The notes under the pieces: generated by a model
The model's input: only the letters and a program-made list of their open reading frames with translations
The model's database searches: none
Told to the model about the DNA's origin: nothing
DNA from: Xylanibacter ruminicola 23
GTDB lineage: Bacteria; Bacteroidota; Bacteroidia; Bacteroidales; Bacteroidaceae
Direction of reading: 5' to 3'
NCBI RefSeq assembly: GCF_000025925.1
Contig: NC_014033.1
Span: 1,200,001-1,232,000, forward strand
DNA: 32,000 bases
Translations under genes and position numbers: made by a program
Part shown: piece by piece, positions 5,701 through 14,962 of the stretch
Position numbering within the stretch: the stretch's first letter is position 1
Layout: each line of letters opens with the position of its first letter

Positions 5701-6038
5701 ACGCCACCGCTGGAACCGCTAAGTTCTTTAACGATAACGGTGTAAAGGCTGTAGCTGTAGCATGGCCCGATGAAGAATGTTCAATGGTCAATGGTCAATG
5801 TTCAATGATTAACGTGATGGATCTTATCAGTCAGCACAAGGTTGGTTTGGTTATCAATGTACCAAAGAATCACACCAGTCGCGAGCTTACCAATGGTTAC
5901 AAGATCCGTCGTGGTGCCATCGATCATAACATTCCTTTGATGACTAACGTGCGTTTAGCCAAGGCATTTATCGAGGCCTTTACCGCTATGAGCATCGATG
6001 ATGTGAAGATCAAATCATGGCAGGAGTATAATAATTGA
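2754..6038 (+). CDS. carB: Carbamoyl-phosphate synthase large subunit
   Basis: 1094 aa. The two homologous ATP-grasp halves are marked by [26 protein letters not shown] and [24 protein letters not shown]. The oligomerisation domain lies between them and an MGS-like C-terminal domain follows. Contains an in-frame heptamer-repeat segment at 5777..5811. Confidence 0.97.
   Translation: [1094 protein letters not shown]
5777..5811 (+). repeat. Heptamer array inside carB (ATGTTCA ATGGTCA ATGGTCA ATGTTCA ATGATTA), ATG-orientation on +
   Basis: Five consecutive 7-nt units read directly from the sequence. They are translated in frame as [12 protein letters not shown] within the C-terminal domain of CarB. 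Confidence 0.9.
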
Positions 6039-6054
6039 TTGAACATTGACCATT
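6037..6054 (-). repeat. Heptamer array, TGA-orientation on +, overlapping the carB stop codon
   Basis: GATTGAACATTGACCATT. 6038..6054 is the exact reverse complement of AATGGTCAATGTTCAAT found at 6151..6167 and 6165..6181. The carB TGA (6036..6038) is part of it. Confidence 0.85.
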
Positions 6055-6087
6055 CTTGCCTTGCAAGCCAGCAGAGCTGGAGCGGAC

Positions 6088-6098
6088 GATTGACCATT
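6088..6098 (-). repeat. Isolated one-and-a-half heptamer units (GATTGACCATT)
   Basis: Same unit and same orientation as 6037..6054, lying in the spacer between the two arrays. Confidence 0.5.
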
Positions 6099-6130
6099 AT
6101 TGCTGCGCCTTTAGAGACAGTACAATATAA

Positions 6131-12205: not shown

Positions 12206-13434
12206 GAAAATTGTTTATTATCAGTGCGTTACTTTTGTCATCTTTTAGCGCACAAGCACAGAACTTCGACGATTATTTCGAAGATAAAACCCTGCGATTA
12301 GACTATACTTTTGCAGGCGATGCTACCCGTCAGCAGATATTTGTCGACGAGTTGATAAGCTTGCCCCGCTGGTACGGGCGCAAGCAGCATCTGGCCGAGC
12401 TGCCACTCAAGGGCAACGGACAGATTACCGTGCGTTCGCTCGCCGATGGAATGGTGATTTATCGCCACTCGTTCTCAAGTTTGTTCCAGGAGTGGGTATC
12501 TACCGCCGAAGCCAAACAAACGCAGAAATCGTTCGAGAACGTGTTTCTGGTGCCCTTCCCCAAATCGCCCGTCGAAATCAAGGTCGAGCTCTTTGATTAC
12601 CACGATCAGGTCATCAGCCGTCTTACCCACAAGGTAGATCCTAAGGATATTCTGATTCGTAAGGCTGGCGAGCGCCAGATTACACCCCATGTCACCCTGC
12701 AGCAGGCTGCCGATACCGCACGCTGCATTCGTGTGGCTTTTGTGGCCGAAGGCTATCAGCAGCAGGAGATGGACGTGTTCCTGAACGATTGTCGTATAGC
12801 GATGGAATCGCTGTTCGAGCACGAGCCCTTTAAGCAGAACCAGCTGAAGTTCAATATGATAGCTGTGATGCCGCCATCTGTTGAGAGCGGCACCAGCGAG
12901 CCCAATAAGGGCATTTGGAAGAATACCCCACTCGGCTCGCATTTCGACACCTTCTATAGCGAGCGCTACCTCACTACCCTGCACCTGAAGAAGCTGCACG
13001 ATGTGCTGGCAGGCATCCCTTACGAGCACATCATCGTGCTGGTAAACACCGATCGCTATGGTGGCGGCGGTATCTACAACTCTTACAACCTTACTTATGC
13101 CCACGGCAAGCACTTCCGTCCCGTTGTGGTTCACGAGTTTGGTCATTCGTTTGGCGGTCTGGGGGATGAGTATCCTTACGGCGACGACGATCCTATGTAT
13201 TTTGCCGATACCGAGCCTTGGGAGCCTAATCTCACAACAAAGCACGATTTCAACGGCAAATGGGAGAACCTGATTAAGGATAAAAAGGCCGGTTTTATCG
13301 AGGGCGGCGGTTACCTCTCAAAGGGTGTTTGGCGTGGTTACGAGAACTGTCGCATGCGCACCAACGAGGAACCCGAGTTCTGCTTGGTTTGCCAGCAGGC
13401 CCTGCAACGTTTAATTGATTTTTATACTAAATGA
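12202..13434 (+). CDS. Secreted M64-family (IgA-peptidase-like) zinc metallopeptidase
   Basis: 410 aa. Signal peptide MRKLFIISALLLSSFSAQAQ. Zinc motif VVHEFGHSFGGLGDEY. ATGA overlap with the folK-like stop. Confidence 0.82.
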   Translation: MRKLFIISALLLSSFSAQAQNFDDYFEDKTLRLDYTFAGDATRQQIFVDELISLPRWYGRKQHLAELPLKGNGQITVRSLADGMVIYRHSFSSLFQEWVSTAEAKQTQKSFENVFLVPFPKSPVEIKVELFDYHDQVISRLTHKVDPKDILIRKAGERQITPHVTLQQAADTARCIRVAFVAEGYQQQEMDVFLNDCRIAMESLFEHEPFKQNQLKFNMIAVMPPSVESGTSEPNKGIWKNTPLGSHFDTFYSERYLTTLHLKKLHDVLAGIPYEHIIVLVNTDRYGGGGIYNSYNLTYAHGKHFRPVVVHEFGHSFGGLGDEYPYGDDDPMYFADTEPWEPNLTTKHDFNGKWENLIKDKKAGFIEGGGYLSKGVWRGYENCRMRTNEEPEFCLVCQQALQRLIDFYTK

Positions 13435-14237
13435 TTACTGAAATACAATCCTTACAACAGCCTGGCATTGAGGTGTTTGGGACGCTCACCGAAGCGCAGC
13501 TCCGAAACAAACTTGATGCCGAACGCGGCTTGTTTATTGCCGAGAGTCCTAAAGTGATACGTGTGGCCCTGCAGGCTGGCTATCAGCCCCAGGCGCTGCT
13601 TTGCGAGCGCAAGCATATTACAGGCGATGCAGCCGATATTATTGCCGCCTGTGGCGATATTCCTATCTATACTGGCGAGCGCGAACTGCTGGCCCAACTT
13701 ACCGGCTATACCCTCACCCGTGGCGTGCTCTGCGCCATGCGTCGCAAACCTGAATTGAGCGTACAACAGGTGCTGGGTAGCATTCCCAGCGGACAGAAAC
13801 ATCGCATCGTGGTGATCGATGGCGTGGTTGATACCACCAATATCGGTGCCATCTTCCGTAGTGCAGCCGCTCTGGGCATCGATGCCGTATTACTTACCCG
13901 TAACAGCTGCGATCCCTTGAATCGCCGCGCTGTGCGTGTATCGATGGGTTCGGTATTTTTAGTTCCCTGGACTTGGCTCGACTCTTACGATACCCTGCGC
14001 TCATTGGGCTATCAGACAGCCGCAATGGCCCTCACCGATAAATCCATCTCGCTCGATGATCCTGTGCTGAAGCAGCAGGAGCGCCTGGCATTTATCATGG
14101 GTACCGAGGGCGACGGTCTGCCCCAGCAGACTATCACCAACGCCGATTTCACCGTGCGCATACCGATGTCACACCAAGTTGATTCACTCAATGTGGCAGC
14201 GGCAGCGGCAGTGGCTTTCTGGGAACTCAGAAAGTAA
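13431..14237 (+). CDS. TrmH/SpoU-family RNA 2'-O-methyltransferase
   Basis: 268 aa. SpoU motifs TTNIGAIFRSAAALGIDAVLL, FIMGTEGDGL and IPMSHQVDSLNVAAAAAVAFWEL. ATGA overlap with the M64 stop. Confidence 0.9.
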   Translation: MITEIQSLQQPGIEVFGTLTEAQLRNKLDAERGLFIAESPKVIRVALQAGYQPQALLCERKHITGDAADIIAACGDIPIYTGERELLAQLTGYTLTRGVLCAMRRKPELSVQQVLGSIPSGQKHRIVVIDGVVDTTNIGAIFRSAAALGIDAVLLTRNSCDPLNRRAVRVSMGSVFLVPWTWLDSYDTLRSLGYQTAAMALTDKSISLDDPVLKQQERLAFIMGTEGDGLPQQTITNADFTVRIPMSHQVDSLNVAAAAAVAFWELRK

Positions 14238-14241
14238 GTAC

Positions 14242-14949
14242 TTATTTATCAGATAGTTTATCTACGTATTTCATCTCGCGCATAATCCTTCCTTGGCGCT
14301 TGTACATATAGCCCGAAGGATTCTTGCTCGAGAATTTACGTGGATTAGGCAGTGTAGCTGCAATCAGGGCGCATTGGGCCTTTGTTAGCTCCGATGCATC
14401 GGTATTAAAGTGCTCTTCGGCAACGGCCTGTGCACCATAGATACCATCCCCCATCTCAATCGAGTTCAGATACACCTCCATAATTCTCTCTTTACTCCAC
14501 ATCAGTTCGATGAGTGCTGTAAAATACACCTCGAACCCTTTACGCACCCACGAGCGTCCAGGCCAAAGGAACACATTCTTAGCCGTTTGCTGCGAGATGG
14601 TAGATGCACCCAGCTTACGTTTCTCTGGGTGCTTGCTGTTACGTTTGGCAGCCTTCTCAATAGCCTGGAAGTCGAAACCGTGATGCTGCAGGAATTTAGC
14701 ATCCTCGCTCGCCATCACCGCCATAGGCAACGATGGTGATATCTTGTCCAGCGATACCCAGTGGTGTTTCAGCTTCAGGTCCTTACCCTCGCTAATCTGC
14801 TGCGAACAGCGTATAAACATCAGAGGTGTAAAGTAAACCGGCAAGAAACGTAGTGCCATAACAGCAAGAATAGTGGAGGCAAAAAATACCACCACTATCC
14901 ATTTTATTATGCTCTTAAATACTTTCAATTGAAAATGGTCAATTGTCAA
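14242..14949 (-). CDS. mtgA: Monofunctional peptidoglycan glycosyltransferase
   Basis: GT51 motifs [14 protein letters not shown] and [12 protein letters not shown], with an N-terminal TM helix. There is no ATG before the TM segment. The only candidate starts are TTG 14949 (inside the heptamer array) and TTG 14928 ([10 protein letters not shown]...). Confidence 0.88.
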
Positions 14950-14962
14950 TGTTCAATGTTCA
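14935..14962 (+). repeat. Heptamer array of 4 units, ATG-orientation on + (TGA-orientation for the minus-strand genes), between the OmpA-family gene stop and mtgA
   Basis: ATGGTCA ATTGTCA ATGTTCA ATGTTCA. The stop of the upstream gene (14964..14966) abuts it. Confidence 0.9.

Follow-up and report, generated by a model that had tools for sequence, protein, structure and literature searches.

Tandem heptanucleotide arrays of Xylanibacter ruminicola 23 as probable inverted arms of a hairpin-forming element family with a PF05635 gene

Heptamer arrays and a cassette between serC and serA

The window analysed here is a stretch of 32,000 nucleotides of Xylanibacter ruminicola 23 (contig NC_014033.1, positions 1,200,001 to 1,232,000), in which 9 kb are marked by repeats of two 7-nt units, ATGGTCA and ATGTTCA (together ATGKTCA). 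The units are joined head to tail, as in the short tandemly repeated repetitive (STRR) or long simple sequence repeat (SSR) class, in six arrays of at least four units and two shorter stretches. Two of the arrays bracket, in inverted orientation, a gene of the PF05635 family that lies between serC and serA (10030-10392, minus strand) and was overlooked by the first-pass annotation of this DNA; its product is a four-helix-bundle protein, called 4HB hereafter. The arrays probably form the inverted ends, or arms, of selfish elements that fold into hairpins and make up one family; a full copy includes the PF05635 gene, other members being hairpins without an open reading frame (ORF) or solo arms. 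Gene assignments in the window are Pfam matches, and loci of other genomes are labelled L001 onward. The genes and element parts concerned are the following.

2754-6038, plus strand: carB
5777-5811, plus strand: solo arm in carB, in frame, in a loop of the MGS-like domain (sequence comparison)
6036-6054, minus strand: 5' arm of an ORF-less hairpin, TGA-type TGATTGAACATTGACCATT, supplying the carB stop
6055-6130, no strand: core or loop of that hairpin, with an inner TGACCAT unit at 6084-6098 and homologous loops in other strains
6131-6186, plus strand: 3' arm of that hairpin, eight ATGKTCA units with ATGATAA variants
6187-6771, plus strand: UPF0029/yigZ
9076 to about 9996, minus strand: serA-like dehydrogenase
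10003-10030, minus strand: 3' arm of the cassette, in cassette sense (TA)ATGGTCA ATGGTCA ATGTTCA ATGTTCA
10030-10392, minus strand: 4HB gene, 120 aa, PF05635 '23S rRNA intervening sequence protein', TIGR02436 type (Pfam E=3e-30)
10394-10421, plus strand: 5' arm of the cassette, in cassette sense (minus strand) TGACCAT TGAGCAT TGACAAT TGACCAT
10427-11494, minus strand: serC
11813-12205, plus strand: folK (HPPK)
11958-11992, plus strand: solo arm in folK, in frame, encoding NGQWSMVNGQW (strain comparison)
14242 to about 14859, minus strand: transglycosylase gene
14935-14962, plus strand: solo array of the 5'-arm type directly past the stop of the OmpA-family gene, in TGA sense on the minus strand
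14964-15725, minus strand: OmpA-family gene

With at most two mismatches, ATGKTCAATGKTCA matches the window 26 times against 1.11 matches expected, a count equalled in 0 of 100 shuffles. Tandem Repeats Finder (TRF) delimits period-7 arrays at 5776-5807, 6130-6191, 10000-10031, 10393-10424, 11957-11989 and 14934-14964. All eight array loci described by the first-pass annotation are present where it placed them, and their orientations in the window were correctly read; one of these loci, 6088-6098, consists of one unit and a partial unit in the loop of the carB-yigZ hairpin.

The 4HB protein, 100% identical to a protein of Xylanibacter ruminicola 23, matches PF05635 from position 2 to position 105 of the 106 in the model. 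Among solved structures, PDB 2RLD is the closest to this protein (E=2e-39), and the homologous structures 2RLD and 2GSC comprise five chains each. The 5' arm begins 5 nt past the serC stop and finishes 1 nt (a T) short of the 4HB ATG (10392). At the other end, the 4HB TAA overlaps the first ATG of the 3' arm, the far end of which reaches the serA start region. Because the inverted arrays bracket the 4HB gene, what had been described as one array after serC and another before serA are the two arms of a single cassette of about 430 nt. The rule that TGA-oriented arrays follow stops and ATG-oriented arrays precede starts therefore fails already in the window: once the 4HB gene is counted, the post-serC array stands in TGA orientation before a start and the pre-serA array in ATG orientation after a stop.

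The cassette arms measure 31 nt and give an inverted-repeat score of 22. Folding of the cassette RNA yields a minimum free energy (MFE) of -129 kcal/mol (z=-6.95), with a terminal stem of about 40 bp closing the whole ORF. Arms and protein are strongly conserved. All haplotypes (at least five) display 4+4 units, with 0 substitutions in the 3' arm and about 3 in 28 positions in the 5' arm, and the 4HB gene shows between haplotypes a synonymous divergence (dS) of 0.57-0.99 and a ratio of nonsynonymous to synonymous divergence (dN/dS) of 0.03-0.08. Such values indicate that the cassette arms and the 4HB protein are under constraint, or that the arms are homogenised.

At the carB-yigZ junction, the same unit builds a hairpin without any ORF. 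The carB stop TGA (6036-6038) is located within a degenerate unit of the 5' arm, and the yigZ ATG (6187) stands in register with the 3' arm, as a ninth unit. The RNA fold of 6025-6200 has an MFE of -59.5 kcal/mol (z=-4.99). The ancestral junction, found empty in L142, is TAATG, stop and start overlapping; just 5' of that TAA, the window holds an insertion of 150 nt whose inverted ends (TGATTGAACATTGA ... TCAATGTTCAATGA) match almost perfectly. The core at 6055-6100 is homologous to two ATGKTCA hairpins of L129, namely to 9521-9575 and to the reverse complement of 8890-8972, and the carB-yigZ structure is therefore an ORF-less family member resembling a miniature inverted-repeat transposable element (MITE). 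A sub-terminal motif, 'GCGCAGCCA', accompanies the ATG arm in the hairpins of L008, L115, L129 and L042. Copies with terminal inverted repeats and a homologous internal sequence thus occur at unrelated loci, a trait of MITE-like and REPIN-like families, although several other loops are unrelated. The initial proposals of a dispersed family of this kind and of inverted pairs forming hairpins gain support; both the cassette and the carB-yigZ pair fold into long hairpins.

The remaining arrays of the window are solo arms. In carB, about 33 nt (11 residues) of array stand in place of the 12 nt (AGDN/DGDN) of array-free orthologues. In folK, about 38 nt replace about 20 nt (MVLRKE) kept by the 98.4%-identical L121, and the same site carries a longer ATGKTCA array in L132 and a different heptamer array in L123. 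The array beside the OmpA-family gene is identical in L121. It ends with TGACAAT TGACCAT, the last two units of the window-lineage variant of the cassette 5' arm, which suggests copying between loci.

Cassettes, empty sites and dispersed arrays in other genomes

A metagenome scan for serC covered 80 orthologous rumen loci of 84-100% identity. Four of them carry the cassette (L121, L129, L173 and L151), with a frameshifted 4HB gene in L173 and L151. The serC-serA spacer has 4-21 nt in many strains and reads 'taatt' in L123 (99% identity); neither the cassette nor ATGKTCA arrays are present in L122-L124, which share 99% serC identity and have spacers of 5-21 nt. Other strains display short stop-containing heptamer arrays running from the serC stop (TTAAGAR, ATTGAYR, CATTAAA, TTTTGAG), and further spacers are occupied by ORF-less array-built hairpins or by GC-rich palindromes. 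The GC-rich palindromic elements, CCCACCCC...GGGAGGGG, are seen in the spacers of L126, L133, L146, L157 and L164, and a small ORF for an 81-aa hydrophobic product in that of L169. No 4HB remnant was found in the ORF-less serC-serA inserts of 385-440 nt in L179, L182 and L184. L122, with 97-99% protein identity from carB to folK, is empty at the cassette, carB, carB-yigZ and folK sites. The search for empty sites in close relatives, proposed when the arrays were first described, has thus identified them at carB-yigZ, serC-serA, folK and carB. The insertions are located at zero-length operon junctions or in tolerant loops and linkers of proteins.

Dispersed arrays track their cognate cassette. 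Outside the serC-serA spacer, the four cassette-bearing loci, 60.8 kb in all, contain six ATGKTCA arrays, and the 76 cassette-free loci contain two over 1,017 kb (Poisson p=4e-9). Counted by locus, such arrays are present in 3/4 cassette-bearing versus 2/76 cassette-free loci (p=5e-4).

The architecture is general across phyla, with heptamers specific to each cassette. A gene-flanking inverted-repeat score was compared with a control of 400 genes from 24 loci (398 non-4HB and 2 4HB), where the median is 8 and the 99th percentile 11; a score of at least 19 is reached by none of the 398 non-4HB genes and by both 4HB genes of the set. Seven of eight independent Bacteroidales 4HB cassettes attain this value versus 0/398 (Fisher p=2e-14), at serC/serA, nusA/infB, three mod/res, DUF4391/methylase and araD/araA. 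The nusA-infB case is a 4HB paralogue in L115 bracketed by (AAAGTGA)n and (TCACTTT)n. Six further Bacteroidales cassettes have inverted heptamer arms of their own sequence, three of them at mod-res junctions of type III restriction-modification (R-M) operons and the others at SNF2-DUF4391, DUF4391-methylase and araD-araA. The unit of the araD-araA cassette, TGACAAT/ATTGTCA, is a variant unit of the window arrays.

In IMG/VR, an independent sample, inverted arms of period 7 or 8 are present at about 15 of the 25 unique 4HB loci, for example (TAATTCG)4.4, (TTTTGAR)n, (AAAATAG)4 and (TAAGAAR)n. A tblastn search of PLSDB located 4HB homologues on 33 plasmids, 16 of which come from Nostoc. Inverted heptamer arrays surround the gene in 10 of the 12 plasmid loci fetched (three of them from Nostoc), and the Chlorohelix locus shows a weaker form of this architecture. 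The arm units on plasmids are as follows.

Nostoc punctiforme: AGGTCGG
Nostoc flagelliforme and Dolichospermum: TAATTCG
Nostoc HK-01: GAGGTCG
Planktothrix: CGTAAAT / CCCCAAT
Euhalothece: ACTGGTC (13 units on one side)
Gloeocapsa: ATTTTAG
Anabaena cylindrica: AAAGTAA-type
Treponema: AAGTGGA/AAGCGGA-type arrays
Bernardetia: TAGTGAT x13

The 239-kb Nostoc flagelliforme plasmid pNFSY06 presents the whole range of forms on one replicon. All five annotated 4HB genes have cassette-specific inverted arrays on both sides, and 12 of the 62 period-7 arrays lie at most 150 nt from a 4HB gene, a zone that makes up 1.4% of the sequence (p=7.5e-11). Among the 50 remaining arrays, 21 use one of the four resident cassette units. 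Most of these form inverted pairs without an ORF, at a distance of 70-170 nt, and some are solo arrays. The pairs A3/A5 and A2/A4 have homologous loops and are therefore MITE-like copies. Arrays on this plasmid typically count 4.4-4.7 units.

Many 4HB genes are found in defence-type operons, with the order mod/4HB/res in L211-L216 and L229-L238 and SNF2/4HB/DUF4391/4HB/methylase in L217-L222. Others stand between a helicase or DUF1156 gene and a methylase or HEPN gene (L272, L274, L275 and L280) or beside cas1/cas2 (L279 and L281). Cassettes thus recur in R-M, DISARM/BREX-like and CRISPR-adjacent operons, and the same mod-res junction harbours independent cassettes whose heptamers differ. An insertion preference could explain this recurrence, as could a functional connection with defence systems. 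PADLOC, which has no model for 4HB, returned no meaningful match pointing to an anti-phage role. XisH/XisI genes adjoin 4HB cassettes or share a plasmid with them in L270 (N. punctiforme pNPUN01) and L285 (46762-47489); the distribution of another heptamer repeat, TAACTGA, is described as parallel to that of XisH/XisI (MacGregor, PMC4679880).

The first-pass annotation regarded the ATGKTCA arrays as genome-specific, which they are not: when 185,579 species genomes were scanned for (ATGKTCA)3, at least 120 loci over many phyla matched. Of the matches listed, 57 belong to rumen Prevotella/Bacteroidales and 23 to cyanobacteria (Calothrix, Tolypothrix, Fischerella, Nostoc, Xenococcus and others); other Bacteroidota or Ignavibacteria account for 22 and other phyla for 18, with Chitinophagales, Ignavibacteria, Acidobacteriota, Nitrospira and Chloroflexota among the further groups. 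In the same list, 30 of 77 Prevotella-group arrays are in frame within long ORFs. Pfam-confirmed genes with internal arrays encode a TonB-dependent receptor, GH94, MetH, an AIR-synthase-like protein and BspA-LRR. In iterative hidden Markov model (HMM) searches of the array loci, only serC-serA orthologues and one paralogue emerged as 4HB.

In-frame arrays are also observed in N-terminal signal peptides of secreted or outer-membrane proteins, just before an AxA/AQ cleavage-type motif, in L006, L022, L026, L054, L056, L093 and L117. In L129 (8344-9852), an intact 502-aa ORF for a DEAD/DbpA helicase includes two complete ATGKTCA hairpins in frame, as inserts of 66 aa and 41 aa in interdomain linkers, and their TGA codons are dodged via the reading frame and single unit mutations. 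A hairpin is likewise in frame in the AIR-synthase-like gene of L042 (4682-4775), whose frame stays open thanks to a change of TGA to TTA. Because the reading frame must survive, intragenic copies are forced into the stop-free orientation, which represents a survivorship effect rather than evidence of function.

Three other repeats of the window are built in a comparable manner.

8534-8580, no strand: period-7 array of CATTAAA/GATTAAA filling the spacer of the co-directional HIT and DUF1015 genes (TRF)
20887-20916, no strand: period-7 array of CATTAAA/GATTAAA filling the spacer of two co-directional genes of the AT-rich island
11691-11807, no strand: 117-nt hairpin of tandem 9-nt units CACGAATTA / AAATTCGTG in the divergent region of serC and folK (TRF and fold)

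CATTAAA/GATTAAA is one substitution away from CATTGAA, and the AT-rich island therefore holds related arrays. The earlier statement that this island is devoid of arrays stands for the ATGKTCA unit and falls for the related ones (20887-20916). The CATTAAA/GATTAAA unit also fills the serC-serA spacer of L122, L148 and L161. The hairpin at 11691-11807 folds with -35 kcal/mol (z=-7.8), and its unit family also builds the serC-serA spacer hairpin of L158. Its units resemble those of the arms (TAATTCG/GAATTCG) that flank 4HB genes in Nostoc, Dolichospermum, L248 and L217. A tRNA gene lies at 6874-6961 (plus strand; Rfam RF00005, 44.6 bits), between yigZ and a TSCPD gene, and Rfam detected no other known RNA family in the part covered. 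Positions 17000-32000 form a low-GC island, with a GC content of 0.35-0.38 from 23 kb on versus about 0.48 elsewhere; the GC skew is strongly negative. Its products include a Peptidase_M15 protein, a protein of 780 aa without Pfam match and an AAA_15/SMC-like ATPase (25337-27496), and it is probably a mobile or defence island.

Known systems and competing explanations

Members of PF05635 are known from the S23p intervening sequences (IVS) of Leptospira and Coxiella. The IVS of Coxiella burnetii comprises 428 nt, with an S23p (PF05635) ORF and a 28-bp terminal stem; two or three tandem GACAGAT heptamers, in strain-variable number, stand just 5' of the ATG, and the IVS is excised by RNase III, the 5' cut falling at the first repeat (PMC4990558). 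The window cassette, of about 430 nt, similarly includes a single PF05635 ORF enclosed in a terminal inverted-repeat stem of about 28 bp or more, with heptamers right 5' of the ATG (four TGAMCAT here, two to three GACAGAT in Coxiella). Further common traits are a transcribed essential locus, a patchy occurrence among strains (4/80 here) and a decay of the ORF (L151 and L173 here). The cassettes described here differ in lying at mRNA operon junctions (serC-serA, nusA-infB, araD-araA and R-M) and not in a 23S rRNA helix (9, 25 or 45), Rfam detecting no rRNA between 5500 and 15200. They also differ by arms that are both made wholly of tandem heptamers and by the dispersed ORF-less hairpins and solo arms of the same unit, present even in frame within genes. 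As modelled, the window cassette shows every structural feature of an S23p IVS except the location in 23S rRNA, and its excision by RNase III would be expected by extension.

Repetitive extragenic palindromic (REP) sequences and REPINs are associated with RAYT genes, and the Correia elements of Neisseria are MITEs processed by RNase III. With these systems, the family shares many short intergenic hairpins, a single-copy gene within the same inverted repeats, a cognate pairing of both and a transcription within operons. The protein, however, is a four-helix bundle of 120 aa that lacks known catalytic motifs, whereas REPIN/RAYT systems rely on an HUH transposase. In contrast to REPINs and Correia elements, the arms consist of heptamers in tandem instead of a unique palindrome, and the insertion sites show no target-site duplication.

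STRR sequences, heptanucleotides of cyanobacteria, were reportedly described by Mazel et al. in 1990, and the ATGKTCA unit is one base away from the STRR2 unit, TTGGTCA. Both have tandem 7-nt units in many, mostly intergenic copies per genome, and ATGKTCA itself occurs in Calothrix, Tolypothrix, Fischerella and Nostoc. ATGKTCA is nevertheless not known as a published STRR unit, and Xylanibacter ruminicola 23 is no heterocystous cyanobacterium. STRR sequences are not known to be linked to a gene, whereas PF05635 genes are bracketed by inverted arrays in the present window and on plasmids of Nostoc, Dolichospermum and Planktothrix, with the cassette units used again in ORF-less pairs. STRR sequences are mentioned in passages of PMC2858038 and PMC4748335, and long heptanucleotide SSRs (Mrazek 2007) are summarised in PMC4679880. 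The TAACTGA repeats (MacGregor 2015, PMC4679880) are also stop-containing heptamers near starts, with occasional in-frame stop-free copies and a patchy distribution over phyla. They differ by their unit, by being direct repeats with almost no inverted pairs, by the lack of an associated gene and by the translational regulation proposed for them (PMC4679880).

The accessory variability determinant (Avd) of diversity-generating retroelements (DGRs) belongs to a homologous four-helix-bundle family, Avd_IVP-like in CDD (PMC10053308). Avd binds nucleic acid and a reverse transcriptase, but no reverse transcriptase, template repeat or variable repeat is present in the window or beside the cassettes examined. 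We know of no Avd gene with flanking heptamer arrays.

It is unlikely that the arrays are generic STRR or long SSR tracts made by local polymerase slippage, into which 4HB genes insert or between which they stay. This idea would suit the abundance of heptanucleotides, the most frequent long-SSR class in prokaryotes according to a passage relayed in PMC4679880, and the comparable spread of TAACTGA arrays over cyanobacteria, Bacteroidetes and Beggiatoaceae (PMC4679880). It would also suit the distance of most arrays from any 4HB gene and the many different heptamers found in the orthologous serC-serA spacer across strains. However, a single unit recurs at many unrelated sites, including within 30 genes, as a block replacing local sequence. 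The block size is sharp, with a peak at 4-5 units (51 of 77 Prevotella arrays among the matches listed), unlike the decay generated by slippage. Moreover, 4HB genes are flanked by arms in inverted orientation, which are conserved and whose unit is specific to each cassette; arrays are found together with their cognate cassette, and hairpin cores are homologous across loci. The original view of the arrays as copies of one element rather than slippage products is upheld on these grounds.

A selection of the arrays as three-frame insulators, with TGA in all frames after one gene and ATG in all frames before the next, as first suggested, seems rather improbable. The suggestion keeps a part of its appeal because the arrays supply the carB stop and the yigZ start in register, often abut start or stop codons within a few nucleotides and show polarity. 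Indeed, stops occur in more frames in the 5' than in the 3' arm in 15 versus 2 cassettes (p=0.002; 23 cassettes with unrelated units), and the TGA arm comes first in 11 versus 2 inverted ATGKTCA pairs (p=0.02). This stop-richness may nonetheless merely reflect purine-rich 5' arms, and the abutment is most simply explained by insertion into operon spacers of near-zero length. The orientation relative to genes shows, for its part, no significant bias. Solo arrays between co-directional genes (n=43) are in ATG sense in 26 cases versus TGA sense in 17 (p=0.22); within 5 nt of a stop, 17 are in TGA and 16 in ATG sense, and within 5 nt of a start, 13 are in ATG and 9 in TGA sense. As these counts rest on crude gene calls (greedy choice of the longest ORF), the near-random result is indicative only. 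The presence of ATG in all three frames is true of ATGKTCA but peculiar to this unit family, most other 3' arms having no ATG, and is thus no property of the element class.

Arrays serving as DNA or RNA binding sites of a regulator, for instance a pentameric 4HB protein on 4-5 heptamers, with a regulon as proposed for TAACTGA, are a poor candidate. The modal number of units is 4-5 and 2RLD and 2GSC have five chains each, the non-coding arms are strongly conserved with a cassette-specific unit, and binding proteins were proposed for TAACTGA arrays (PMC4679880). Against this, the array-bearing genes share no common function (carB, folK, serA, the OmpA-family gene, TonB-dependent receptors, MetH and GH94), and many arrays lie within coding sequence.

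Phase-variable contingency tracts, in which the gain or loss of one 7-nt unit shifts a frame or a promoter spacing, are scarcely credible: the unit length is no multiple of three, the unit number varies between strains in the Coxiella IVS and arrays are present or absent between near-identical strains (folK, window versus L121), but no unit-number polymorphism that would switch a gene on or off is seen between close relatives, an arm size fixed at 4+4 over at least five haplotypes and a dS of 0.57-0.99 argues against such a tract, as do the OmpA-side array identical in L121, the intragenic copies that stay in frame in housekeeping genes and the strain differences by whole blocks instead of single units.

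The reading of the arrays as arms of a selfish element family meets difficulties of its own. 4HB genes account for only 3 of the 105 ORFs adjoining ATGKTCA arrays (Pfam; among the matches listed), which rules out 4HB as the usual neighbour of these arrays; the reverse relation, arrays as the usual neighbour of 4HB genes, held. Neither a transposase nor a reverse transcriptase nor another gene for a catalytic protein was found with the element, 4HB being the sole associated gene, and no target-site duplication is evident when filled and empty sites are compared at serC-serA and carB-yigZ. The serC-serA cassette gives no sign of hopping, the closest 4HB relative (P0016) being always located at serC-serA. 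Many loops of ATGKTCA hairpins are mutually unrelated, so that arms may have come together in place to form some of the pairs. Shared ancestry of the cassette-bearing strains could partly account for the joint presence of cassette and arrays, and the cross-phylum breadth of ATGKTCA may partly reflect genomes rich in all heptamer arrays. Finally, the authors of the Coxiella study think that the S23p protein is not even made (PMC4990558).

Proposed mechanism and wider meaning

According to the fold, the arms would pair in the operon transcript as a stem of about 30-40 bp around the inserted ORF, and this stem is probably cut by RNase III, by analogy with rRNA intervening sequences. Such a cut would make the insert tolerable although the operon is essential. 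In the stop-rich 5' arm, beside the 4HB start, translation coming from upstream probably terminates in whichever frame it runs, and translational coupling is likely there. Hairpins and solo arms probably spread via arm copying, in which 4HB may act in trans in the manner of REPIN/RAYT systems, and within genes only open-frame arrangements would survive this process.

No literature was found that connects PF05635 genes with operon junctions, with STRR sequences or with heptamer arrays at large, or that deals with the ATGKTCA unit or its encoded peptides. The element is a variant on the known IVS, STRR and REPIN-like kinds. A more speculative and rather doubtful extension is that PF05635 proteins are the missing partner of STRR-type arrays, as pentameric nucleic-acid binders that recognise their own arms and promote arm copying or maintenance in trans. 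This would be a system comparable to REPIN/RAYT built on a non-transposase protein, possibly working via RNA together with a polymerase or reverse transcriptase of the host, comparable to Avd in DGRs. It would have seeded ORF-less hairpins and solo arms in cyanobacteria, Bacteroidota, Chloroflexota, spirochaetes and others, and would appear in 23S rRNA as the classical IVS.

If this is true, two puzzles become one problem, namely the nature of the cyanobacterial STRR and heptamer arrays, pending since 1990, and the role of the ORF of rRNA intervening sequences, pending since 1993. IVS-type elements would then be widespread operon-junction and in-frame insertions in gut, rumen and cyanobacterial genomes, beyond rRNA. 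For annotation, 4HB genes and heptamer hairpins split operons, supply stops and starts, add NGQWSMV-type peptides to enzymes and recur between mod and res. The 4HB protein is a concrete candidate for the factor that recognises or spreads the arrays.

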